A stretch of DNA of 12,968 nucleotides, from assembly GCF_003334355.1 (NCBI RefSeq), contig NZ_QOWP01000052.1. One strand, 5' to 3'. A model generated the notes under the pieces. That model was not told the origin of the DNA. It searched no databases and saw only the letters and a program-made list of their open reading frames with translations. Source of the stretch: Escherichia coli. Its GTDB lineage: Bacteria > Pseudomonadota > Gammaproteobacteria > Enterobacterales > Enterobacteriaceae. Positions 1-12,968 of the stretch are shown here, in pieces. The position numbers were made by a program, and so were the translations under genes. Position 1 is the first letter of the stretch. Each line of letters begins with the position of its first letter.

Positions 1-125
1 TGCAGTTGCCATGTTTTACGGCAGTGAGAGCAGAGATAGCGCTGATGTCCGGCAGTGCTTTTGCCGTTACGCACCACGCCTTCAGTAGCGGAGCAGGAAG
101 GACATCTGATGGAAATGGAAGCCAC
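1..125 (-). CDS. insA: IS1 InsA (transposition repressor / N-terminal transposase part), 5' portion only; partial at window edge
   Basis: Minus-strand translation from GTG (complement of 123-125) gives [42 protein letters not shown], the InsA zinc-finger N-terminus (CxxC...CxxC), recalled from memory. The gene runs off the window start. Confidence 0.8.
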
Positions 126-180
126 GCAAGCACCTTAAAATCACCATCATACACTAAATCAGTAAGTTGGCAGCATTACC
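1..180 (-). mobile_element. IS1 insertion sequence, left (IRL/insA) end; element continues beyond the window start
   Basis: Reverse complement of 1-180 reads GGTAATGCTGCCAACTTACTGATTTAGTGTATGATGGTG... (the IS1 left inverted repeat) followed by the insA start and coding sequence. The terminal inverted repeat maps to 158-180, with the element boundary at 180/181. Confidence 0.9.
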
Positions 181-691
181 CGCCAATATATCCGCCGCCC
201 AAAATACCTAAATGCCCAGGCAATTCTTTTAGATTAAGTAATCCGGTGCTGTCATATACTCCTGGCGTGGTGGTAATTCCAGGAATTGGCGGAACCACGG
301 TTTGTGCACCGGTATTAATAAAAATTTTCTCGCCATGAATTTCCAGATTTGCCTCAGGCCGATGAACACGCAGGCTATGATTATTGATAAACTCCGCCTG
401 GCCGTCGATCACGTCGATATTGGGCATATCCGCAAGATTATGAAAATTCTTATTACGTAAAAAATTAACCACTTCATTTTTACGCTGTATGGCTCGGACA
501 AAATCTGTGTGCTGCTGTGCGTCATGAACCAATGTTTTGGTTGGGATGCAGCCGATATTAATACAGGTCCCGCCATACATTGCATTTGATTGTTCGATGA
601 GAGCCACACGCCAACCTGCTTTTGCCAGCGTGACGGCTAATGTTTTTCCAGCCTTGCCAAAACCAATAATCACTGCCTGATATTTATTCAT
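176..691 (-). pseudogene. rclA: rclA/ykgC (FAD-dependent pyridine nucleotide-disulfide oxidoreductase) truncated by the IS1 insertion; only about 171 N-terminal codons remain
   Basis: Translation from ATG (complement of 689-691) gives MNKYQAVIIGFGKAGKTLAV...GGTCINIGCIPTK...GILGGGYIGG, then a stop immediately inside the IS1 IRL. An AGGAAA Shine-Dalgarno sits upstream. The Rossmann GxGxxG motif and the redox-active CxxxxC are present, but the C-terminal ~60% of this ~440-aa family is absent. The upstream in-frame ATG at 718 is probably not the true start. Confidence 0.8.
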
Positions 692-916
692 GATGATTTC
701 CTGTCGAAACGCGTTCATTTTACATCATGACTATAGACGCAAAAGAGCAAATAACATTTCTTCACAACGCTTGATATTTTGTCTTATCGTCTGGTATTTT
801 CTTTTTCTTAATCAGAATCACAAAACAAAAATCATGATTAACTATTTGATGGTATTAGATTAGTTATTTACTAAGATTGTTGGTGTTTGTAATCAAAAAC
901 CACTCAGGAGTCTGAT
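692..916. promoter_or_regulatory. Divergent rclA-rclR intergenic promoter region (AT-rich)
   Basis: A 225-bp AT-rich spacer lies between divergently oriented start codons. By established knowledge RclR acts on the rclA promoter in this interval. Individual -10/-35 elements were not confidently placed by eye. Confidence 0.45.
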
Positions 917-1771
917 ATGGATGCCCTTAGCCGTTTGTTGATGCTTAACGCTCCACAAGGAACGATCGATAAGAATTGCGTGTTAGGAAGTGACTGGCAG
1001 CTTCCACATGGTGCCGGGGAATTATCGGTTATTCGTTGGCATGCGTTAACGCAAGGAGCGGCGAAGCTGGAAATGCCGACGGGGGAGATTTTTACATTAC
1101 GCCCGGGAAATGTGGTCCTGCTACCACAAAATTCAGCCCATCGCCTGAGTCATGTCGATAATGAATCAACCTGTATTGTCTGCGGCACTCTTCGGCTGCA
1201 ACATTCGGCGCGTTATTTTTTAACGTCTTTGCCGGAAACGCTGTTTTTAGCACCGGTTAACCACAGCGTAGAATATAACTGGCTGAGGGAGGCGATCCCG
1301 TTTTTACAACAGGAATCCAGATTGGCAATGCCGGGAGTGGATGCACTGTGTAGCCAGATCTGCGCTACATTCTTTACCCTCGCGGTGCGTGAGTGGATTG
1401 CACAGGTTAATACTGAGAAAAACATTCTCAGTTTGCTTCTGCATCCACGTCTTGGTGCGGTAATACAGCAAATGTTGGAAATGCCAGGACACGCCTGGAC
1501 CGTCGAATCGCTGGCCAGCATCGCCCACATGTCCCGGGCAAGTTTTGCCCAGCTTTTCCGTGATGTTTCCGGAACCACGCCGCTGGCTGTATTAACAAAG
1601 TTGCGTCTACAAATAGCGGCCCAGATGTTTTCCCGGGAAACGCTCCCTGTTGTGGTGATCGCTGAGTCAGTAGGCTATGCCAGTGAATCATCTTTTCACA
1701 AGGCGTTTGTCCGCGAGTTTGGTTGTACCCCGGGAGAATATCGGGAAAGGGTCAGACAGCTTGCACCCTGA
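917..1771 (+). CDS. rclR: AraC-family transcriptional activator RclR (reactive chlorine-responsive regulator; YkgD)
   Basis: 284-aa ORF with an AGGAG Shine-Dalgarno 6 nt upstream of the ATG. The C-terminal sequence shows the AraC helix-turn-helix signature (...SFAQLFRDVSGTTPLAVLTKLRLQIAAQMF...VGYASESSFHKAFVREFGCTPGEYR). The N-terminal domain carries cysteines, consistent with RclR. Position is divergent from rclA. Confidence 0.9.
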   Translation: MDALSRLLMLNAPQGTIDKNCVLGSDWQLPHGAGELSVIRWHALTQGAAKLEMPTGEIFTLRPGNVVLLPQNSAHRLSHVDNESTCIVCGTLRLQHSARYFLTSLPETLFLAPVNHSVEYNWLREAIPFLQQESRLAMPGVDALCSQICATFFTLAVREWIAQVNTEKNILSLLLHPRLGAVIQQMLEMPGHAWTVESLASIAHMSRASFAQLFRDVSGTTPLAVLTKLRLQIAAQMFSRETLPVVVIAESVGYASESSFHKAFVREFGCTPGEYRERVRQLAP

Positions 1772-2296
1772 ATAAAACCGCCAGAAATCAGGGCAAAGAT
1801 AATCCGCATTCCGGGAGTTGTGAGCCTTTCAACTATTTCTATTTCCAACGGTGGTTTGGGCTTTATATATTTTTTCTGATGGACTCTAGCTCAGTTTTTA
1901 AATAAAAATGCAAACTAAATTGCTTCAATTAAATAAAATCCCGACTATTACTTGATACGTGATTATTGTCGGTGATTTTTTTGTACACCATCAGTGTATA
2001 TCTCAATAACCCCTGAATAAGTAGCTCTGAATAGGTATAAGGGATGTAGCCATTTTTAAATGGATTTCTTATGCCAAAAATGATCGTCGATTTCCCCATA
2101 AAATGTGAGCGATGCCGAAAGAAATAAAATTAGTTATTGCATTTGACGTTTGGATGAAAGATTATCATTTGTCATACAAATGAGGGGTGGTATGTTGCTA
2201 GCCAATTAAAAAGAACGCCATATTTATTGATGATTGATCCCCCGGTGGGGGGGAAACATCGGGCATAAATGGGCATGAAGTAATGGAGTATTAGTT

Positions 2297-3016
2297 GTGA
2301 ATGTCAATTTCTTTGTCACCTGTATTGGTGACGCCCTGAAATCAAGAATGGCACGAGACTCCGTGCTGCTACTGGAAAAACTCGGCTGTCGCGTAAATTT
2401 CCCGGAGAAACAGGGATGCTGCGGTCAGCCTGCGATCAATAGCGGTTATATCAAAGAAGCGATTCCAGGGATGAAAAATCTGATCGCCGCACTGGAGGAT
2501 AACGACGATCCCATTATTTCACCGGCTGGCTCTTGCACCTATGCCGTAAAAAGTTACCCGACGTATCTGGCGGATGAACCTGAATGGGCATCACGTGCCG
2601 AAAAGGTTGCCGCGCGTATGCAGGATCTCACCTCTTTTATTGTTAATAAATTAGGGGTAGTCGATGTAGGTGCCAGTTTGCAAGGGAGAGCTGTGTATCA
2701 CCCATCTTGTAGCCTGGCCCGTAAGCTGGGAGTGAAGGACGAGCCACTTACGCTGCTGAAAAATGTGCGTGGACTGGAGCTGTTGACCTTTGCTGAACAG
2801 GATACCTGCTGCGGATTTGGCGGCACGTTCTCGGTCAAAATGGCCGAAATATCCGGCGAGATGGTGAAAGAAAAGGTTGTGCACCTGATGGAAGTCCGCC
2901 CTGAGTATTTAATTGGTGCTGACGTGAGTTGCCTGCTGAACATCAGTGGGCGATTACAACGGGAAGGGCAGAAAGTCAAAGTGATGCATATTGCTGAAGT
3001 GTTGATGAGCCGCTGA
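2297..3016 (+). CDS. ykgE: LutA-like Fe-S oxidoreductase subunit (cysteine-rich CCG-domain protein) YkgE
   Basis: 239-aa ORF starting at GTG 2297, with GGAG 7 nt upstream. It carries cysteine-rich motifs (CCGQP, CCGFGG) typical of LutA/GlpC-type CCG domains. It is the first gene of a tightly packed three-gene operon. Confidence 0.88.
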   Translation: MNVNFFVTCIGDALKSRMARDSVLLLEKLGCRVNFPEKQGCCGQPAINSGYIKEAIPGMKNLIAALEDNDDPIISPAGSCTYAVKSYPTYLADEPEWASRAEKVAARMQDLTSFIVNKLGVVDVGASLQGRAVYHPSCSLARKLGVKDEPLTLLKNVRGLELLTFAEQDTCCGFGGTFSVKMAEISGEMVKEKVVHLMEVRPEYLIGADVSCLLNISGRLQREGQKVKVMHIAEVLMSR

Positions 3017-3026
3017 GGATATAAAG

Positions 3027-4454
3027 ATGTCGATCAAAACCAGTAATACAGATTTTAAGACACGCATCCGTCAGCAAATTGAAGATCCGATCATGCGCAA
3101 AGCGGTGGCAAACGCGCAGCAGCGTATTGGGGCAAATCGGCAAAAAATGGTCGATGAATTGGGGCACTGGGAGGAGTGGCGCGATCGGGCCGCCCAGATA
3201 CGTGATCATGTTCTGAGTAATCTCGACGCTTATCTGTACCAGCTCTCAGAAAAAGTGACGCAAAACGGCGGTCACGTCTATTTTGCAAGAACCAAAGAAG
3301 ACGCTACCCGCTACATTTTACAGGTTGCCCAACGCAAAAATGCCCGGAAGGTGGTGAAATCTAAATCGATGGTGACCGAAGAGATTGGTGTCAATCATGT
3401 GTTGCAGGATGCTGGCATTCAGGTGATTGAAACCGATCTGGGTGAATATATTCTCCAGCTGGATCAAGATCCGCCATCTCATGTTGTGGTCCCGGCAATT
3501 CATAAAGATCGCCATCAGATCCGTCGAGTGCTACACGAACGTCTGGGCTATGAGGGGCCGGAAACGCCTGAAGCGATGACCTTATTCATCCGGCAAAAAA
3601 TCCGCGAAGATTTCCTCAGTGCTGAAATAGGTATTACCGGCTGTAATTTCGCGGTGGCAGAGACCGGTTCGGTATGCCTGGTGACCAATGAAGGTAATGC
3701 GCGAATGTGTACCACGCTGCCTAAAACGCATATTGCAGTGATGGGAATGGAGCGTATTGCCCCCACGTTTGCCGAGGTAGATGTATTGATCACCATGCTG
3801 GCGCGCAGTGCCGTTGGTGCACGTTTGACGGGATACAACACCTGGCTGACAGGACCGCGCGAAGCTGGGCACGTTGATGGTCCTGAAGAGTTTCATCTGG
3901 TTATTGTCGATAACGGGCGTTCTGAGGTGCTGGCCTCTGAATTTCGGGATGTGCTGCGCTGTATTCGCTGCGGGGCTTGTATGAATACTTGTCCGGCATA
4001 TCGCCATATTGGCGGTCATGGATATGGCTCTATTTATCCAGGGCCAATTGGTGCGGTGATTTCTCCGCTACTTGGCGGCTATAAAGATTTTAAAGATTTA
4101 CCCTACGCCTGCTCTTTATGCACAGCTTGTGACAACGTGTGTCCGGTGCGTATTCCGCTGTCAAAACTGATTTTGCGTCATCGTCGGGTGATGGCTGAAA
4201 AAGGGATCACCGCAAAAGCAGAGCAACGGGCGATAAAAATGTTCGCTTATGCCAATAGTCATCCAGGATTGTGGAAAGTCGGGATGATGGCCGGTGCTCA
4301 TGCGGCAAGCTGGTTTATCAATGGCGGCAAAACACCACTCAAATTTGGCGCGATTAGCGACTGGATGGAAGCACGCGATCTTCCTGAAGCTGACGGAGAG
4401 AGTTTCCGTAGTTGGTTTAAGAAACATCAGGCGCAGGAGAAAAAGAATGGATAA
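3027..4454 (+). CDS. ykgF: LutB-like iron-sulfur protein with two 4Fe-4S ferredoxin motifs, YkgF
   Basis: 475-aa ORF beginning 10 bp after the ykgE stop. It contains two ferredoxin-type clusters, CIRCGACMNTCP and CSLCTACDNVCP. Confidence 0.9.
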   Translation: MSIKTSNTDFKTRIRQQIEDPIMRKAVANAQQRIGANRQKMVDELGHWEEWRDRAAQIRDHVLSNLDAYLYQLSEKVTQNGGHVYFARTKEDATRYILQVAQRKNARKVVKSKSMVTEEIGVNHVLQDAGIQVIETDLGEYILQLDQDPPSHVVVPAIHKDRHQIRRVLHERLGYEGPETPEAMTLFIRQKIREDFLSAEIGITGCNFAVAETGSVCLVTNEGNARMCTTLPKTHIAVMGMERIAPTFAEVDVLITMLARSAVGARLTGYNTWLTGPREAGHVDGPEEFHLVIVDNGRSEVLASEFRDVLRCIRCGACMNTCPAYRHIGGHGYGSIYPGPIGAVISPLLGGYKDFKDLPYACSLCTACDNVCPVRIPLSKLILRHRRVMAEKGITAKAEQRAIKMFAYANSHPGLWKVGMMAGAHAASWFINGGKTPLKFGAISDWMEARDLPEADGESFRSWFKKHQAQEKKNG

Positions 4455-5142
4455 TCGAGGCGAATTTTTGAATAACGTTGCTCAGGCACTGGGTCGCCCG
4501 CTGCGACTTGAACCGCAAGCAGAAGATGCGCCGCTTAACAACTATGCTAACGAGCGGCTTACCCAACTTAACCAACAGCAGCGCTGTGACGCGTTTATTC
4601 AGTTTGCCAGCGATGTTATGTTGACGCGCTGTGAGCTGACCAGCGAGGCGAAGGCGGCAGAAGCTGCAATACGTCTGTGTAAAGAGCTGGGAGATCAGTC
4701 GGTCGTGATTAGCGGTGACACGAGGCTGGAGGAATTGGGGATTAGCGAACGTTTGCAGCAGGAATGCAATGCCGTTGTTTGGGATCCGGCGAAAGGTGCC
4801 GAGAATATCTCGCAGGCAGAGCAGGCTAAAGTGGGTGTTGTGTATGCTGAATATGGTTTAACCGAATCGGGAGGCGTGGTTCTTTTTTCCGCCGCCGAGC
4901 GCGGGCGTTCATTGAGCCTGCTCCCGGAATATTCTCTTTTTATCCTGCGTAAAAGCACTATCCTGCCGCGTGTAGCGCAACTCGCAGAAAAATTGCATCA
5001 GAAAGCGCAGGCCGGTGAACGAATGCCTTCCTGCATTAACATCATTAGCGGCCCCAGTTCAACGGCGGATATTGAGCTTATCAAAGTCGTCGGAGTTCAT
5101 GGCCCGGTGAAAGCGGTGTATCTGATTATTGAGGATTGTTGA
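4447..5142 (+). CDS. ykgG: LutC-like protein YkgG (third subunit of the LutABC-type complex)
   Basis: The ATG at 4447 lies inside the sequence AAGAATGGATAA, overlapping the ykgF stop by 8 nt, which indicates translational coupling. The product begins MDNRGEFLNNVAQALGRP... and is 231 aa. The longer track ORF from 4294 is an in-frame upstream extension inside ykgF. Confidence 0.85.
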   Translation: MDNRGEFLNNVAQALGRPLRLEPQAEDAPLNNYANERLTQLNQQQRCDAFIQFASDVMLTRCELTSEAKAAEAAIRLCKELGDQSVVISGDTRLEELGISERLQQECNAVVWDPAKGAENISQAEQAKVGVVYAEYGLTESGGVVLFSAAERGRSLSLLPEYSLFILRKSTILPRVAQLAEKLHQKAQAGERMPSCINIISGPSSTADIELIKVVGVHGPVKAVYLIIEDC

Positions 5143-5248
5143 GAGAGATATGAAGTCTGGACATAAACCTGAAGAAGGCATACGAGGTTGAAAATAGCGT
5201 TTAGGACAACCTGACTTAACCCCGTTCCGTCATGGTTATGCTGCTCTT

Positions 5249-5289
5249 CTGTAAATATCCTGGTATTACCAATGCCAGGATATTTACAG
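5249..5289. repeat. Perfect 15-bp inverted repeat (CTGTAAATATCCTGG / CCAGGATATTTACAG) with an 11-nt loop, in the convergent ykgG-ykgH intergenic region
   Basis: Read directly from the sequence: left arm 5249-5263, right arm 5275-5289. It could act as a bidirectional terminator or a protein-binding palindrome, but no U-tract follows on either strand. Confidence 0.6.
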
Positions 5290-5384
5290 TGAAAAAGACA
5301 GGCATCCATTCCTGAAAACGGGTTCCCTTCCCGGTCATTGTCACTTCAGCTTTATACAGGCACTCTCTATCAAAATGTTGTTTA

Positions 5385-6053
5385 TTACTGCCCAGAGTTT
5401 TGTTGGTATTCATCTACCATTTTTTTGACAAGGCAAAACATTACAGAAATTACAATGCTTAGAAAAAATCCCAGAGCCAGGCAAATGGCAGCAGGGTATT
5501 TATTTTTTATTTCTGGTGAGCTTATAGTTACACAGCCATCACCGTTCGGATACAATGACCAGTTCCTGGTCAGGTATATCATTTTTGTATAAAGCTCACT
5601 GTTAATTGCTGAAGGCGTTTGTATCTCATCGAGAACTTGCCTGCCATTATGATATTCTGACGCATACCATTTGATAATAGAGGCCTGCACGCGAGATATT
5701 TCCTCTTCAGCAGTTGGTAAAGCTCTCTTATCTCCTGACCATTCCAGCCTTATTTCTCTGTTCTTGACATCTGGGCTGGTGTGAAAAAATGTAGTAATTC
5801 GCTGAATAACATCTTCAGTCATTGTAGTCTGACAGGCAAAATTATTATTGCTATCACAGCTAACAAGTATACCTGGCGTTGTCTGGTTTATTTTTAGGCT
5901 GTAAATCACTTTTATATTGTCTTTATTGATATACAGAAACAACAGCACCATAGCCATACATATAGCCATAATAAAAAGGATAACACGAATCTTTTTCTTC
6001 AGATAAAATAAAATCTCAATCAGATCGATATCCTGTTTGATTTGTTCACGCAT
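5385..6053 (-). CDS. ykgH: Predicted inner-membrane protein YkgH
   Basis: 222-aa ORF with a single strongly hydrophobic N-proximal segment (ILFIMAICMAMVLLFLYI) followed by a hydrophilic domain. It is convergent with ykgG and matches the K-12 gene order. Confidence 0.75.
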   Translation of the reverse strand: MREQIKQDIDLIEILFYLKKKIRVILFIMAICMAMVLLFLYINKDNIKVIYSLKINQTTPGILVSCDSNNNFACQTTMTEDVIQRITTFFHTSPDVKNREIRLEWSGDKRALPTAEEEISRVQASIIKWYASEYHNGRQVLDEIQTPSAINSELYTKMIYLTRNWSLYPNGDGCVTISSPEIKNKYPAAICLALGFFLSIVISVMFCLVKKMVDEYQQNSGQ

Positions 6054-6265
6054 AATATATCCAGAGAATAAAATCTGTCGCAGATAAGGTTGTATTAATA
6101 GTCTGTATCAGGAATGTTCGGGTTAAATATCAGCAAAAAGCCCGCATCATGAATACTGGATATGAAGCATGAGAGTTACCTCAGTGTTTATATAAGGATT
6201 CGGTCCCCCTCTCTGGAACGGTAACTCTCAATCTGATCGGTTCCTGCGTTAGTTCACATCACGAC

Positions 6266-7936
6266 TCATTTTTTCGCTCTCACCGGCATCCCATTTGCCA
6301 CAAAATATCCCGTCGTGCTCCTCGGCAGCGCTTCCTGTCCACGAATCATATCCGCTATTTTCTCGCCAATCATAATTGTCGTGGCGTTCAAATTCCCGGT
6401 GATAATCTGCGGCATAATCGACGCATCCACCACACGCAGGCCTTCTAACCCGTGTACGCGGCCTTCGCCGTCAACCACGGACATCTCGTCGTAACCCATT
6501 TTGCAGGTACCGCACGGATGGAAGGCGGTTTCGGCGTGGTTACGCACGAACTCATCGAGCTGTTCATCCGTCTGGCATTCGACACCGGGGCTGATTTCGC
6601 GGCCACGATACTGATCCAGCGCGGGTTGATGCATGATCTCGCGGGTGATGCGAATTGCGTCGCGGAACTCCTGCCAGTCCTGCTCGTGCGACATGTAGTT
6701 AAACAGAATCGCCGGATGCTGGTGCGGGTCGCGGGATTTAATCCGCACATGCCCACGGCTTGGCGAGCGCATTGAGCCGACGTGGCACTGGAAACCGTGC
6801 TCTTTCACTGCATTCGAGCCGTTATAGTTAATCGCTACTGGCAGGAAATGGTACTGAATATTCGGCCACGCAAATTCCTCACGGCTGCGAATAAATCCAC
6901 CTGCTTCAAAGTGGTTGCTGGTTCCAACGCCAGTGCCGCCAAACAGCCACTCCGCACCGATTTTCGGCTGGTTCCACCACTGCAGGGCAGGGTAGAGGGA
7001 AACCGGTTCTTTGCACTCATATTGCAGATACATCTCCAGATGATCCTGAAGATTTTCGCCGACGCCGGGTAATTCATGCACCAGCGGAATATCAAACTCC
7101 GCCAGCAGTTCAGCGTTGCCGACGCCGGAGCGTTGCAGGATCTGCGGTGAGGCAATCGCGCCTGCACATAACAGCACTTCTTTGTTGGCCGTTGCGCGGG
7201 TTGGGATGGTGCTGTCGCCTTCCAGCCATTCGACGCCCACCGCGCGTTTGCCGTCAAAAATGATGTGATCGGTCATAGCGTGAGTACGAATGGTCAGGTT
7301 AGGACGCGATTTGGCCTGATCGAGATAGCCACGCGCGGTGCTGGCGCGACGGCCCTGCGGCGTGACGGTGCGATCCATCGGACCAAAACCTTCCTGCTGA
7401 TAACCGTTGAGATCGTCCGTGCGCGGGTAGCCCGCCTGCACGCCCGCTTCAATCATCGCTTCAAACAGCGGATTGACGCCGGGTTTGGAGGTAGTGACGC
7501 TCACCGGGCCATCACCGCCGTGATAGTCGTTTTCACCCATATCGCGAGTCTCGGCCTTGCGGTAGTAGGGCAGGCAGTCGAGGTAGCTCCAGTTCTCCAG
7601 ACCGGGTTCTTGCGCCCAGTTATCGAGATCCAGCGCATTGCCACGGATGTAGCACATGCCGTTGATCAGCGACGATCCACCCAGACCTTTACCGCGTCCG
7701 CACTCCATGCGGCGGTTATTCATAAACGGTTCAGGTTCCGTTTCATAGGCCCAGTTGTAGCGTTTACCCTGTAGCGGGAATGCCAGGGCAGCGGGCATCT
7801 GGGTGCGGAAGTCAAAGCGATAGTCCGGGCCGCCCGCTTCAAGCAGCAGCACGGAGGTATTCGGATCTTCAGTCAGACGGGTAGCGAGAACGTTGCCGGC
7901 TGAGCCGGCACCAATAATGATGTAGTCAAATTGCAA
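6266..7936 (-). CDS. betA: Choline dehydrogenase BetA (GMC oxidoreductase, FAD-dependent)
   Basis: The product starts (M)[20 protein letters not shown]..., with the FAD-binding GxGxxG motif. The start is a TTG (complement of 7934-7936) lying 5 nt downstream of a perfect AGGAGG. The track ORF to 7981 over-extends upstream into betB. Confidence 0.9.
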
Positions 7937-7949
7937 ATAAACCTCCTGG

Positions 7950-9422
7950 TTAGAATATGGACTGGAATTTAGCCATCTCAACCTGGATGGACTTCACCTG
8001 GGTGTAACTCTGGAGCGTCATCACGCCGTTCTCGCGACCAATGCCGGAGTGTTTGTAGCCGCCAACGGGCATCTCTGCCGGGGATTCGCCCCAGGTGTTG
8101 ATCCAGCAAATACCCGCTTCCAGCTGATGAATGACGCGATGCGCGCGGTTCAGGTCCGCTGTCACGATGCCCGCCGCCAGGCCGTAGTCGGTATCGTTAG
8201 CGCGGCGAATGACTTCGTCTTCCGACTCGTAGGTCAGAATGGACATCACTGGCCCGAAGATCTCTTCACGCACGATGGTCATATCGTCGCTGCAATCGGT
8301 GAACACTGTCGGTGCAACCCATGCGCCGTTATCGAAGCCATCGCCTTTCAGTACATCGCCGCCGCACAGTACGCGCGCGCCTTCCTCTTTGCCTTTGGCG
8401 ATATAGCGCAGCACGTTATCGCGATGCGGGAAGCTGACCAGCGGGCCGAAGTTAGTTTGCGGATCGAAAACGTCGCCCGCGCGAATGCGCTCAACGCGCG
8501 CCAGAATTTTCTGCTCAAATGCGGCTTTGCATTTCGCCGGAACGAAGACGCGGGTGCCATTGGTACACACCTGACCGGAGCTGAAGAAGTTTGCCATCAT
8601 GGCGATATCGGCGGCGAGATCGAGATCCGCATCATCGAAAACGATCAGCGGTGATTTACCGCCCAGTTCCATGGTCACTTCTTTCAGGGAAGAGGCCGCC
8701 GAGTTAGCCATCACTTTTTTGCCGCTGGCGACACCGCCGGTAAATGACACTTTGGCAATGCCCGGATGCTCGGTCAGATATTGCCCGGTCTCCGCGCCCA
8801 CGCCCGGCAACACGTTAAATACGCCGTCCGGCAGGCCCGCTTCGCTGTAAATTTCAGCCAGCTTTAACGCGGTAAGCGGGGTAACTTCGCTCGGTTTGAA
8901 AATCATTGCGTTGCCTGCCGTCAGCGCCGGGGCGGATTTCCACAGGGCAATCTGGATCGGGTAGTTCCATGCGCCAATCCCTGCCACTACGCCCAGCGGT
9001 TCGCGGCGGGTATACACAAAGGACGTTTCACGCAACGGGATCTGGCTGCCTTCCAGCGCCGGGATCAGCCCGGCGTAGTACTCCAGCACGTCCGCACCGG
9101 TAACGATATCGACGGTTGAGGTTTCCGAATATGCTTTTCCGGTGTCGAGGGTTTCCAGTTTTGCGAGTTCGTCATTGCGTTCACGCAGAATATCAACGGC
9201 CCGACGCAGAATACGCGAGCGCTCCATGGCGGTCATCGACGCCCAGATTTTTTGCCCCTGCTGGGCGCTTTTCACGGCGCGATCGACATCCTCGCGCCCG
9301 GCGGCCTGCACGGTCGCCAGCACGTTACCGTTGGCCGGGTTAATGGTCTCGAAGGTGCGACCGCTGGTGGCGGAGGTATAACCACCATGTATATAAAGCT
9401 GCTGTTCTGCCATTCGGGACAT
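7950..9422 (-). CDS. betB: Betaine-aldehyde dehydrogenase BetB (NAD-dependent ALDH family)
   Basis: 490-aa product [15 protein letters not shown]..., with the catalytic ALDH motifs (...ELGGKSP..., ...[13 protein letters not shown]...). The ATG (complement of 9420-9422) is preceded by a GAGGAG Shine-Dalgarno. The gene ends 13 bp upstream of the betA start. Confidence 0.9.
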
Positions 9423-9435
9423 CACGTCTCCTCGG

Positions 9436-10023
9436 TTAATCGGTGGGTAGATGCTGAGTGATAAAGTGGCGGGTCAGGGAATTAGCGCGGGTTTTATCCA
9501 GCGGTTTGCCGCTCAGAGCCGCGCGCAGCCATAATCCATCAATCAGCGCGGCCAGGCCGTAGCCCGCTTCCTGTGCCTGTTCGCGCGGCAATTCGCGACG
9601 AAACTCGCTCACCAGATTCGACAGCAAGCGGCGGCTGCTGACCTGCTGTAAACGATAGAGCATCGGCTGATGCATACTGCTGGCCCAGAACGCCAGCCAG
9701 GCTTTCATCGCCGCACTGCTCACCTGCGTTTCATCGAAGTTTCCGCCAACAATCGCCTGTAATCGCTGCTCTGCACTGCCCTGCGGAAGTGCATGTAATC
9801 GATTCAAAACCGCGTCACGCAGCTGACTGGTGATATCGCGCATGGTTGCTTCCAGCAGACCATTTTTGTCCCTGAAATAGTGGCTGATGATCCCCGTAGA
9901 AACGCCTGCACGGCGGGCGATCTGCGCGATCGTTGCATCGTGCATGCCCACTTCATTTATTGCTTCCAGTGTGGCGTCGATCAGTTGTCTGCGCCGGATC
10001 GACTGCATCCCCAATTTGGGCAT
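9436..10023 (-). CDS. betI: TetR-family choline-responsive repressor BetI
   Basis: 195-aa product [50 protein letters not shown]..., with an N-terminal TetR helix-turn-helix. The track ORF begins 6 codons upstream at 10041. The start at 10023 is preferred because it has a GGAG 7-10 nt upstream and matches the length I recall for this family. Confidence 0.85.
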
Positions 10024-10151
10024 TTTCGCCACTCCATTCATCAGCGGTGTTTATCTATTAAAGCGGTTATTGATTGGACGTTCAATATAAAATGTGTCTT
10101 AATTGTTACGAATTTGATTTTAAATAGTAACAATAACAGTGGGGATACTGG
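10024..10151. promoter_or_regulatory. Divergent betI / betT promoter-operator region, including an imperfect dyad TTATTGATTGGACGTTCAATATAA (10067-10090)
   Basis: A 128-bp AT-rich spacer lies between the divergent starts. It contains the half-sites ATTGGAC / GTTCAAT in inverted orientation, typical of a TetR-family operator. By established knowledge BetI binds a dyad in this interval. Confidence 0.6.
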
Positions 10152-12185
10152 ATGACAGACCTTTCACACAGCAGGGAAAAGGACAAAATCAATCCGGTGG
10201 TGTTTTACACCTCCGCCGGACTGATTTTGTTGTTTTCCCTGACAACGATCCTGTTTCGCGACTTCTCGGCCCTGTGGATTGGCCGCACGCTGGACTGGGT
10301 TTCTAAAACCTTCGGTTGGTACTATCTGCTGGCGGCAACGCTCTATATTGTCTTTGTGGTCTGTATCGCTTGTTCGCGTTTTGGTTCGGTGAAGCTCGGG
10401 CCAGAACAATCCAAACCGGAATTCAGCCTGCTGAGTTGGGCGGCGATGCTGTTTGCTGCCGGGATCGGTATCGACCTGATGTTCTTCTCCGTAGCCGAAC
10501 CGGTAACGCAGTATATGCAGCCGCCGGAAGGCGCGGGACAGACGATTGAGGCCGCGCGTCAGGCGATGGTCTGGACGCTGTTTCACTACGGCTTAACCGG
10601 CTGGTCGATGTATGCGCTGATGGGCATGGCGCTCGGATACTTTAGCTATCGTTATAATTTGCCGCTCACCATCCGCTCGGCGCTGTACCCGATCTTCGGT
10701 AAACGGATTAACGGGCCGATAGGTCACTCAGTGGATATTGCAGCGGTGATCGGCACTATCTTCGGTATTGCCACTACGCTCGGTATCGGTGTGGTGCAGC
10801 TTAACTATGGCTTGAGCGTACTGTTTGATATTCCCGATTCGATGGCGGCAAAAGCGGCACTGATCGCCTTGTCGGTGATCATCGCCACTATCTCGGTGAC
10901 ATCCGGTGTCGATAAGGGCATTCGCGTGTTATCGGAGCTTAATGTCGCGCTGGCGCTGGGATTGATCCTGTTCGTGTTGTTTATGGGCGACACTTCGTTC
11001 CTGCTTAATGCACTGGTGCTGAATGTTGGCGACTATGTGAATCGCTTTATGGGCATGACGCTCAACAGTTTTGCCTTCGACCGTCCAGTTGAGTGGATGA
11101 ATAACTGGACGCTCTTCTTCTGGGCATGGTGGGTGGCATGGTCGCCGTTTGTCGGCTTGTTCCTGGCGCGTATCTCGCGTGGGCGTACCATTCGCCAGTT
11201 CGTGCTGGGCACGTTGATTATTCCGTTTACCTTCACGCTGTTATGGCTCTCGGTGTTCGGCAATAGCGCGCTGTATGAAATCATCCACGGCGGCGCGGCA
11301 TTTGCCGAGGAAGCGATGGTCCATCCGGAGCGCGGCTTCTACAGCCTGCTGGCGCAGTATCCGGCGTTTACCTTTAGCGCCTCCGTCGCCACCATTACTG
11401 GCCTGCTGTTTTATGTGACCTCGGCGGACTCCGGGGCGCTGGTGCTGGGGAATTTCACCTCGCAGCTTAAAGATATCAACAGCGACGCCCCCGGCTGGCT
11501 GCGCGTCTTCTGGTCGGTGGCGATTGGCCTGCTGACGCTCGGCATGCTGATGACTAACGGGATATCCGCGCTGCAAAACACCACGGTGATTATGGGGCTG
11601 CCGTTCAGCTTTGTGATCTTCTTCGTGATGGCGGGGTTGTATAAATCTCTGAAGGTAGAAGATTACCGCCGTGAAAGTGCCAACCGCGATACCGCACCGC
11701 GACCGCTGGGGCTTCAGGATCGCCTGAGCTGGAAAAAACGTCTCTCGCGCCTGATGAATTATCCGGGCACGCGTTACACTAAACAGATGATGGAGACGGT
11801 CTGTTACCCGGCAATGGAAGAAGTGGCGCAGGAGTTGCGGTTGCGCGGCGCGTACGTGGAGCTAAAAAGCCTGCCACCGGAAGAGGGACAGCAGTTGGGT
11901 CATCTGGATTTGTTGGTGCATATGGGCGAAGAGCAAAACTTTGTCTATCAGATTTGGCCGCAGCAATATTCGGTGCCGGGCTTTACCTACCGCGCACGCA
12001 GCGGTAAATCGACCTACTACCGGCTGGAAACCTTCCTGTTAGAAGGCAGCCAGGGCAACGACCTGATGGACTACAGCAAAGAGCAGGTGATCACCGATAT
12101 TCTTGACCAGTACGAGCGGCACCTTAACTTTATTCATCTCCATCGTGAAGCGCCGGGCCATAGCGTGATGTTCCCGGACGCGTGA
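10152..12185 (+). CDS. betT: High-affinity choline transporter BetT (BCCT family)
   Basis: 677-aa ORF with multiple hydrophobic transmembrane segments and a tryptophan-rich BCCT signature region (...WTLFFWAWWVAWSPFVGLFLARISRGRTIRQF...). A long hydrophilic C-terminal tail follows. Confidence 0.92.
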   Translation: MTDLSHSREKDKINPVVFYTSAGLILLFSLTTILFRDFSALWIGRTLDWVSKTFGWYYLLAATLYIVFVVCIACSRFGSVKLGPEQSKPEFSLLSWAAMLFAAGIGIDLMFFSVAEPVTQYMQPPEGAGQTIEAARQAMVWTLFHYGLTGWSMYALMGMALGYFSYRYNLPLTIRSALYPIFGKRINGPIGHSVDIAAVIGTIFGIATTLGIGVVQLNYGLSVLFDIPDSMAAKAALIALSVIIATISVTSGVDKGIRVLSELNVALALGLILFVLFMGDTSFLLNALVLNVGDYVNRFMGMTLNSFAFDRPVEWMNNWTLFFWAWWVAWSPFVGLFLARISRGRTIRQFVLGTLIIPFTFTLLWLSVFGNSALYEIIHGGAAFAEEAMVHPERGFYSLLAQYPAFTFSASVATITGLLFYVTSADSGALVLGNFTSQLKDINSDAPGWLRVFWSVAIGLLTLGMLMTNGISALQNTTVIMGLPFSFVIFFVMAGLYKSLKVEDYRRESANRDTAPRPLGLQDRLSWKKRLSRLMNYPGTRYTKQMMETVCYPAMEEVAQELRLRGAYVELKSLPPEEGQQLGHLDLLVHMGEEQNFVYQIWPQQYSVPGFTYRARSGKSTYYRLETFLLEGSQGNDLMDYSKEQVITDILDQYERHLNFIHLHREAPGHSVMFPDA

Positions 12186-12197
12186 TTGTTATTGCAT

Positions 12198-12234
12198 AAA
12201 ACAGCGCCATGTCTGCATATGGCGCTGTTTCTCC
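12198..12234 (+). terminator. Putative rho-independent terminator of betT
   Basis: The hairpin AAACAGCGCCAT-(gtctgcat)-ATGGCGCTGTTT starts 13 bp after the betT stop and is followed by TTTCTCC. The stem is GC-rich and perfect over 12 bp. Confidence 0.6.
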
Positions 12235-12891
12235 TACCTCTTGATACGTTATATCTATACGGTTAAGCCCTTAGTATCTATTGATGATTACCAGACAACA
12301 GATAATAAAAAAGAAAAGAACTATTGCAGCCCAAAACCTACATTTGGGCTGTTGCGAATGTTCAATAAGTTTAGTCTTATTTAATGTAAATATTGCTGAT
12401 CATTTGAAATGACGCATTATTCATGAGAAATGTGTATCGTAAATCAACTGAAATTAACGCAACCATTTGTTATTTAAGGTTTAATTATCTGTGTGTGATA
12501 TTTTATTGAATGTTTTAAATATTGTTTTTATTGGCATTGCTATAATATTGGTTATCATTTGCTGAATGGATTCAGTCTTAATGAGTGGGTTTTTAAGGGA
12601 CAGGCATAGAGTAATGATACGTATGCATAACCAACATCTTTACTCATTATGTCATTGAATGTTGACGCTATGTGTTTATGAGGGAGAGGTATTTTCAGTT
12701 GATCTGGATTGTTAAATTCATATAATGCGCCTTTGCTCATGAATGGATGCCAGTATGTAGTGGGGAATTATAAATATTGAAATAGTCCAACTACTTCTTT
12801 ATTACCAAAAATGAGTATCTGAATTTTAATATTGCATTCTTGCGTGATTATCTCCTGAGTTTGACTTGTGATTACCTTTTTAAGGTATTTA

Positions 12892-12968
12892 GGTAATGAC
12901 TCCAACTTATTGATAGTGTTTTATGTTCAGATAATGCCCGATGACTTTGTCATGCAGCTCCACCGATT
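12892..12968 (-). mobile_element. IS1 insertion sequence, right (IRR/insB 3') end; element continues beyond the window end
   Basis: 12892-12968 reads GGTAATGACTCCAACTTATTGATAGTGTTTTATGTTCAGATAATGCCCGATGACTTTGTCATGCAGCTCCACCGATT, which is the IS1 IRR read inward. It has the same orientation as the copy at 1-180. Confidence 0.9.
12907..12968 (-). CDS. insB: IS1 InsB (transposase) C-terminal end; partial at window edge
   Basis: Minus-strand translation gives ...SVELHDKVIGHYLNIKHYQ*, with the TAA stop (complement of 12907-12909) lying inside the terminal inverted repeat, as in IS1. Confidence 0.7.
   Translation of the reverse strand, partial: SVELHDKVIGHYLNIKHYQ

Follow-up and report, generated by a model that had tools for sequence, protein, structure and literature searches.

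IS1 prefers AT-rich DNA and depends on H-NS. Classical work on gal and lac established that this element is polar in both orientations. The activating insertions of bgl and flhDC have a different geometry: they are located upstream of the promoter, which remains joined to its gene. An insertion of this type, flhDC::IS1 in MG1655, is discussed in a study of pdeL regulation (Reinders et al., bioRxiv 10.1101/2021.10.01.462762).

PdeL is a c-di-GMP phosphodiesterase that doubles as a transcription factor, turning its own expression on or off. The first analysis of pdeL autoregulation was reportedly that of Reinders et al. in 2016. The protein has been described as a 'digitiser', associated with two c-di-GMP states in E. 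coli populations, and it affects biofilm escape, motility, and sensitivity to phage N4. Activation of pdeL requires both Cra and PdeL, an hns mutant exhibits strong derepression, and at CIB, the distal PdeL box, H-NS and PdeL compete (Reinders et al., bioRxiv 10.1101/2021.10.01.462762). In an RpoD genomic-SELEX table, the betT>yahA spacer is listed with the promoter TTGATC-16-TATAAT and flagged HNS (Shimada et al., 2014, PMC3946193). In addition, pdeL appears among mobile-element insertion hotspots replicated in two E. coli isolate collections (Durrant et al., bioRxiv 10.1101/527788).

Here, we describe a stretch of 12,968 nucleotides of E. coli DNA (assembly GCF_003334355.1, contig NZ_QOWP01000052.1), hereafter the window, which ends in an IS1 copy that very probably parts the pdeL promoter from its gene. 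The features under discussion are collected in Table 1, in which positions beyond the insertion are window-equivalents derived from IS-free genomes.

Table 1. Features of the window, IS1 sites in other E. coli genomes, and segments used for insertion counts.
Feature	Position	Strand	Basis or count
Divergent iso-IS1 end (IRL side), truncating rclA	1–178	−	91.7% identity to IS1 over 180 nt
betT, choline BCCT transporter	10152–12185	+	NCBIfam NF007399, 1314.8 bits
betT terminator-like hairpin	12199–12230	+	14-bp G+C-rich stem, 4-nt loop, short U tail
K-12-type AT-rich betT–pdeL cassette	12226–12891	+	G+C 0.33; runs to window-equivalent 13045 in IS-free genomes
CIB, distal Cra-independent PdeL box	about 12361–12385		palindrome AATAAG-N6-CTTATT; overlaps H-NS site
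yahV (b4730), 24-aa single-helix small membrane protein	12491–12565	+	GTG start; translation VCDILLNVLNIVFIGIAIILVIIC (stop)
Cra box (CB), GCTGAATGGATTCAG	12561–12575		sequence swapped in CB- mutant oligo 5030 / strain AB2400
CDB, proximal Cra-dependent PdeL box	12576–12589		sequence swapped in CDB- oligo 5028 / strain AB2402
pdeL (yahA) core promoter TTGATC-16-TATAAT	12699–12726	+	10/12 consensus match
First ~159 nt of ~327-nt pdeL 5' leader	12733–12891	+	distances to promoter and to ATG at equivalent 13060
Predicted 9-bp target duplication AGGTATTTA	12883–12891		from 8–9-bp duplications at simple IS1 insertions nearby
IS1 IRR end, first 77 nt	12892–12968	−	77/77 identical to complete IS1 copies (EC590, PSS-12)
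IS1 sites upstream of transcription start	12281, 12332, 12564, 12595, 12688
Leader IS1 sites, first part	12764, 12801, 12813 (x2, both orientations), 12842, 12846, 12865 (x2, different IS1 variants), 12866
Leader IS1 sites, second part	12870, 12903, 12913, 12933, 12939, 12950, 12973 (x2), 12974, 12985
IS1 sites in pdeL ORF	13079 (x2, both orientations), 13339, 13711
Further pdeL ORF sites	13291, 13582, 13636		from match spans only
Segment: leader	12800–13020		split 95/3776 records; truncated or split 111/3772 genomes
Segment: promoter/early leader	12590–12810		split 59/3783; truncated or split 69/3779
Segment: CIB–yahV	12380–12600		split 13/1957; truncated or split 36/1954
Segment: pdeL ORF	13250–13470		split 10/5155; truncated or split 8/5151
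Segment: betT	11900–12120		split 3/5187; truncated or split 3/5183

The AT-Rich Tract Downstream of betT

The window runs from an iso-IS1 end (1–178) and a truncated rclA through rclR, ykgEFG, ykgH, betA, betB, and betI to betT, the product of which is identical to WP_000131044.1, a protein present in many genomes. The hairpin that follows betT has a predicted folding energy of −21.2 kcal/mol (z = −5.2), which none of 200 shuffled sequences equaled. A consensus terminator scan made no call at this hairpin, because its U tail is only short. The G+C content is 0.311 over 12240–12891 and 0.322 over 12186–12891, compared with 0.510 over 179–12185. An earlier note on this DNA, made from the sequence alone, had described an AT-rich tract at 12240–12891 that ends at an IS1 IRR. 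Both statements were borne out, with 31% G+C against 51% elsewhere in the window, correct coordinates for the IRR, and 12891 as the last chromosomal base before the second IS1. The note's suggestion of an H-NS-bound regulatory region, and more specifically an H-NS-silenced one, is supported for the identical K-12 sequence by the published derepression in the hns mutant, by the competition between H-NS and PdeL, and by the SELEX 'HNS' flag. Its statement that the tract holds no convincing gene must be amended for yahV, which encodes 24 amino acids, carries the annotation 'protein YahV' at this position in RefSeq genomes that are nearly identical, and is discussed in PMC9976479. The statement stands for a minus-strand ORF of 61 codons (12555–12740), which has no NCBIfam match and was dismissed as a real gene, being probably spurious. 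An Rfam search over 12100–12968 yielded nothing credible, the sole match being mir-84 (E = 0.42).

Sequence comparison with IS-free genomes identified the approximately 706 bp between the end of betT and IS1 as a K-12-type betT–pdeL spacer. The closest genome found, that of E. coli PSS-12, is 99.94–99.96% identical over the window. Its spacer matches the tract at 705 of 706 positions, the sole difference (12568) falling inside the Cra box, and K-12 derivatives exhibit 100% identity over 12380–12600. In IS-free genomes the spacer measures 874 bp, which places the pdeL ATG at window-equivalent 13060, as read from IS-free PSS-12 and from EC590. The AT-rich cassette varies by strain. In ehaA-type E. 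coli, the segment 12226–13045 is swapped for one of 4.6 kb encoding a 1327-aa protein, which is the EhaA autotransporter, judged by its position and size, and in three loci homology ends at 12225 and picks up again at 13046. This variation among strains fits xenogeneic silencing by H-NS.

Regulatory Sites of pdeL and the Position of IS1

The regulatory sites were placed by locating the oligonucleotides of the Jenal-laboratory supplement on the window. CIB was positioned by means of EMSA oligos 4991/4997, which correspond to 12351–12418, together with the legend, which sets CIB 10 bp and 33 bp from the fragment ends. EMSA oligo 4695 corresponds to 12560–12589, and the Cra box overlaps the yahV stop codon. 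The 'P1' promoter mutant oligo 5032 maps around 12690–12722, a Dam site (GATC, 12701–12704) lies within the pdeL −35 hexamer, and the fragment that recruits RNAP spans 12560–12738, such that CIB, CB, CDB, P1, and the RNAP fragment are all located upstream of 12738. The −10 hexamer, together with the RNAP-binding fragment, puts the inferred transcription start of pdeL at about 12733; a search of the literature found no mapped pdeL 5' end. Compared with the K-12 pdeL promoter region, the sequence is effectively identical, and CIB, CB, CDB, and TTGATC-16-TATAAT are intact in the window. Unlike its K-12 counterpart, the leader in the window is broken by IS1 at about +159.

By reference to IS-free relatives, this insertion point precedes the ATG by 168 nt, and, independently of the exact transcription start, IS1 begins 154 bp past the RNAP-recruiting fragment, so that the pdeL coding sequence would be parted from the silencers, both PdeL boxes, the Cra box, and the promoter. 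On this placement of the published oligonucleotides, IS1 very probably lies downstream of every mapped element, including the core promoter, and would split the promoter, and not only silencers, from pdeL.

The earlier note had named pdeL as the next gene in K-12 synteny, had allowed that the downstream gene might prove to be far away or to face away from IS1, and had placed IS1 upstream of that gene, where it may separate it from silencing or regulatory DNA. In IS-free relatives, pdeL is indeed next, is co-directional, and starts 168 bp past the insertion point. The separation from silencers likewise agrees with these relatives, but the account is incomplete, as IS1 is also downstream of the promoter at 12699–12726. 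A hybrid promoter supplied by IS1, as the note had further suggested, is not evident. The best combination of an IS1 end and target DNA on the reconstructed junction, TTGGCA-15-TAGCGT, matches the consensus at 8/12 positions with a 15-nt spacer, and a scan of a natural analogue of the insertion found no outward consensus promoter in IS1. A native promoter-like site, TTGAGC-16-GATAAT (9/12), is present at equivalent 12904–12931, 21 nt past the junction. The literature search found no expression data for any leader::IS1 allele. For annotation, these placements mean that the tract should be treated as a promoter mapped in full rather than as anonymous H-NS-bound DNA, and that insertions in it are to be read as disconnections of promoter and gene.

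Two IS1 Copies of Different Age

The second IS1 starts at 12892 with GGTAATGACTCC... and contains the IRR terminal inverted repeat GGTAATGACTCCAACTTATTGAT... In this orientation, its transposase genes would read toward betT and its IRL would face pdeL. The window breaks off after 77 nt of the element, apparently where an assembly contig stops, and the second copy of the predicted target duplication AGGTATTTA would lie past that point. At the other end of the window, the iso-IS1 leaves the N-terminal 171 codons of rclA at 179–691 on the minus strand (NF040477). A Tn9-like IS1 composite transposon would have two IS1 copies around a segment and a single target duplication around the whole. Both copies here have the same orientation and bracket 179–12891, but their junctions differ in age. 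PSS-12 shares the identical rclA::iso-IS1 junction and is without IS1 before pdeL. The left junction is thus ancestral and the right one new, which indicates two separate insertions. Because a genome that is 99.95% identical lacks the IS1 before pdeL, the second IS1 is, as judged by sequence comparison, a recent and lineage-private event. Among 5,426 complete E. coli RefSeq genomes, none has an IS1 junction at 12891/12892. Exact-pattern scans of genome and metagenome contigs detected neither its left junction nor its predicted right junction (allowing a 7–10-nt duplication), and the Logan contigs that were matched via the truncated RclA are without the second IS1.

Recurrent IS1 Events in the pdeL Leader

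IS1 was located relative to IS-free PSS-12 in 28 loci from complete E. coli genomes, each position being expressed as the window-equivalent of the last base before IS1. Apart from the present one, no fewer than 20 IS1 events were mapped to the 327-nt pdeL leader across the 5,426 complete genomes of E. coli; none coincides with the exact site of the window, and both orientations are common. Natural carriers of an IS1 in the leader include KL53, EC4, LD27-1, EC590, and PSS-13. Simple IS1 insertions carry 8–9-bp duplications and account for 15 of the 20 leader events, with the spacer beyond intact. The remaining five (HH107, VTB96816v, E8, GmM062, and CFSAN064036) have an adjacent deletion that removes pdeL, and some pdeL-removing deletions extend up to yahL/yahM. 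The presence of pdeL beyond IS1 is therefore not to be assumed in the source strain. At least four events were mapped in the pdeL ORF, or seven when three read from match spans are included, and one ORF event has spread through an ST361-like clade. An IS5-family element was found at about 12598 in another genome. The events that delete or interrupt pdeL imply that its loss is tolerated, or favored, in nature.

The adjacent deletions bear on what follows IS1 in the present strain. An IS1-mediated adjacent deletion or inversion could have joined the leader to distant DNA, in which case pdeL would not be the next gene. Five of the 20 mapped leader events are of this type, the window stops 77 nt into IS1 and leaves the far side unconstrained, and in PSS-12 a further IS1 separates yahD from a truncated prpD, in an orientation that would fit an inversion product. 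We nevertheless consider a rearrangement endpoint unlikely, given that 15 of the 20 comparable events are simple insertions with 8–9-bp duplications and intact spacer beyond, and that a simple adjacent deletion from the PSS-12 element would be expected to expose IRL, whereas IRR is seen here. An adjacent deletion from the yahD/prpD IS1 was rejected as the simplest origin on the latter ground; an inversion may still have occurred. The second IS1 and the yahD/prpD IS1 of PSS-12 also share a 4-nt flank, TTTA, probably by chance.

Frequency of Leader Insertions

Insertion frequencies were determined by searching equal 221-bp segments and counting genomes in which the segment was split or truncated, per genome and with shared ancestry ignored (Table 1). 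On this ancestry-uncorrected, per-genome basis, insertions in the leader segment are ~13-fold those in the pdeL ORF segment. The hotspot of Durrant et al. represents the same locus and phenomenon, and the map from complete genomes reproduces many unique insertions near pdeL. That study appears to name only the nearest gene, whereas the present map narrows the hotspot down to the 327 nt of leader that separate P1 from the ATG. The hotspot near pdeL is real and already published, and the window represents a new allele at an unreported site.

A neutral target preference might account for this recurrence, since this DNA is rich in AT, bound by H-NS, and probably bent, and insertions might have little effect on fitness because pdeL is mostly silent. 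IS1 of different variants and of either orientation has returned to exactly the sites 12813, 12865/12866, 12973/12974, and 13079, which points to local target structure, and IS5 inserts in the tract too. On the other hand, the hottest 150 bp, at a G+C content of 0.38, are less AT-rich than 12380–12600 (0.27), which is hit ~4-fold less, and neutrality appears somewhat unlikely. It was for the same misfit that AT-richness was not accepted as the only driver of the hotspot. With leader hits exceeding those in the ORF and in more AT-rich upstream DNA, selection for a regulatory outcome may have played a part, although genome counts uncorrected for shared ancestry do not tell selection and neutrality apart.

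A more far-reaching possibility, which we hold to be distinctly unlikely, is that the pdeL leader is an IS-operated evolutionary switch, in which IS1 or IS5 insertions between P1 and the ATG are selected and fix the state of the bistable circuit. The fixed state would then be either OFF or a constitutive ON that is independent of H-NS and Cra and confers resistance to N4-like phages. Such a switch would act on c-di-GMP heterogeneity and form a natural parallel to the IS switch at flhDC, and the excess of leader insertions over the ORF and AT-richer neighbors would reflect selection, not target preference.

Predicted Effect on pdeL Control

On balance, we think it probable that IS1 in the leader causes loss of native pdeL control, amounting to a near knock-down, rather than activation. 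On this reading, the 768-bp IS1 moved into the long leader of pdeL, where such elements have landed repeatedly in E. coli, and it would part the pdeL coding sequence from promoter P1 and from control by Cra, PdeL, and H-NS. Since IS1 is polar either way, transcription from P1 should fail to reach pdeL, and the bistable logic of Cra, PdeL, H-NS, and c-di-GMP should be lost. Residual pdeL expression would be at best weak and constitutive, arising from a cryptic leader promoter or from IS1 read-out. Were the event an IS1-mediated deletion, like one in four comparable cases, pdeL would be gone, with an effect in the same functional direction. Mechanistically, the insertion would be closer to a classical polar leader insertion than to bgl/flhDC activation. 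As in the polar insertions of gal and lac, IS1 lies between the promoter and the downstream coding sequence, where a block is expected in either orientation. Unlike gal and lac, pdeL is monocistronic and autoregulated, and the loss would be that of a bistable switch, not of distal operon genes.

The bgl and flhDC insertions resemble the present one insofar as IS1 lies in AT-rich, H-NS-bound regulatory DNA near a motility or biofilm gene and occurs in both orientations. By that analogy, IS1 might free pdeL from H-NS, Cra, and PdeL, and a promoter at the IS1 end or a cryptic one in the leader would make PdeL constitutive. The result would be lower c-di-GMP and protection from N4-like phages, a benefit that would explain the recurrence of the insertions. 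Constitutive or plasmid-borne pdeL does confer N4 resistance, and the ~13-fold per-genome excess of leader over ORF insertions, which also exceed those in more AT-rich upstream DNA, would fit such a benefit, as would the persistence of the 9/12 promoter-like site between IS1 and the ATG and the intact pdeL in 15 of the 20 leader events. Unlike in bgl and flhDC, however, IS1 is downstream of the promoter and parts it from the gene, which rules out simple derepression as the mechanism. Moreover, the occurrence of both orientations implies no particular outward promoter, the hybrid promoter is poor (8/12, 15-nt spacer), and pdeL is deleted in five of the 20 leader events and interrupted within its ORF in at least four mapped ones (seven with those inferred from spans). 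Weighing these points, we regard activation as quite improbable.

With loss of native control as the preferred reading, an IS1 between the pdeL promoter and coding sequence should abolish the two-state circuit in this strain. Of the complete genomes that carry the leader, about 2.5–3% have it interrupted, which would make loss or rewiring of the switch a common natural variant, and differences in biofilm and phage phenotypes between strains may trace to pdeL leader insertions.

Two observations are less readily accommodated by a simple loss. The 9/12 site just downstream of IS1 could drive expression, which would run counter to a knock-down, and the leader has a much higher density of insertions than the ORF, a distribution that pure loss of function does not predict.

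Reuse of Insertion Targets Ahead of and Within pdeL

Different IS1 sequence variants (91–100% identity), in both orientations, have repeatedly hit the same or adjacent target positions in the pdeL region (see table). Such reuse across variants and orientations implies that the target determinants there are very local. Strain C1 carries two IS1 copies in its betT-pdeL locus (L024), at 1499–2266 and 2791–3558. More than one IS family is attracted, since the tract of another E. coli locus (L006, 12450–13642) contains an IS5-family element encoding a 326-aa DDE transposase, inserted at window-equivalent ~12598, directly after the Cra-dependent PdeL box.

IS1 insertion positions in the betT-pdeL region
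Feature	Window-equivalent position	Loci or context
Reused IS1 target	12813	L036/L040
Reused IS1 target	12865/12866	L018/L019/L029
Reused IS1 target	12973/12974	L001/L025/L028
Reused IS1 target	13079	L024/L030
Strain C1, first IS1	12564	End of yahV, edge of Cra box
Strain C1, second IS1	13079	Inside first pdeL codons

Alternative Cassettes and Regulatory Sites

Two alternative cassettes occur between betT and pdeL. One is the AT-rich tract of the K-12 type (window 12226–12891), which comprises yahV, the PdeL boxes, the Cra box, the promoter and the leader. In strains of the ehaA type (L003, L008, L012 at 12075–16716), homology ends at 12225 and restarts 14 bp before the pdeL ATG, and the K-12-type tract is replaced by 4.6 kb of DNA that codes for a protein of 1327 aa, judged by size and position to be EhaA. 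The 5′ end of pdeL is just ~82% identical in these strains. Together, the replaced tract and divergent 5′ end predict that pdeL regulation in ehaA-type strains must be quite unlike that of the K-12 type.

Over 706 bp of the tract, the window and its close relative PSS-12 (L015) differ solely at window 12568 (L015 7304), a base within the Cra box GCTGAATGGATTCAG that is G in the window and K-12 and T in PSS-12. The −35 hexamer of the pdeL promoter, TTGATC, includes a Dam site (GATC, window 12701–12704), and pdeL is among the genes most down-regulated in a dam mutant (PMC11741368).

Paired IS1 Copies and Their History

PSS-12 has an additional IS1 (L015 1267–3316) that joins yahD to a truncated prpD, with yahE through prpC deleted. 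Its IRR junction and the window junction have four flanking bases (TTTA) in common, extending the identity to 81 nt. This short flank match is probably due to chance, but the source strain may have undergone an inversion between two IS1 copies.

The IS1 copies at window 1–178 and 12892–12968 point the same way and enclose 12.7 kb containing rclA′, rclR, ykgEFG, ykgH, betABI, betT and the pdeL promoter, a layout like that of the composite transposon Tn9. The segment might undergo mobilization, amplification or recombinational deletion. The window starts inside one IS1 and ends exactly 77 nt into the other, which is typical of a repeat-bounded short-read assembly contig with k = 77; because repeats bound the contig, it holds no sequence beyond the second IS1.

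At the opposite end (window 1–691), rclA is cut after codon 171 by a divergent iso-IS1 with 91.7% identity to IS1A/B-type copies. The identical junction occurs in PSS-12 and several Logan assemblies, and this insertion is therefore older than the second IS1.
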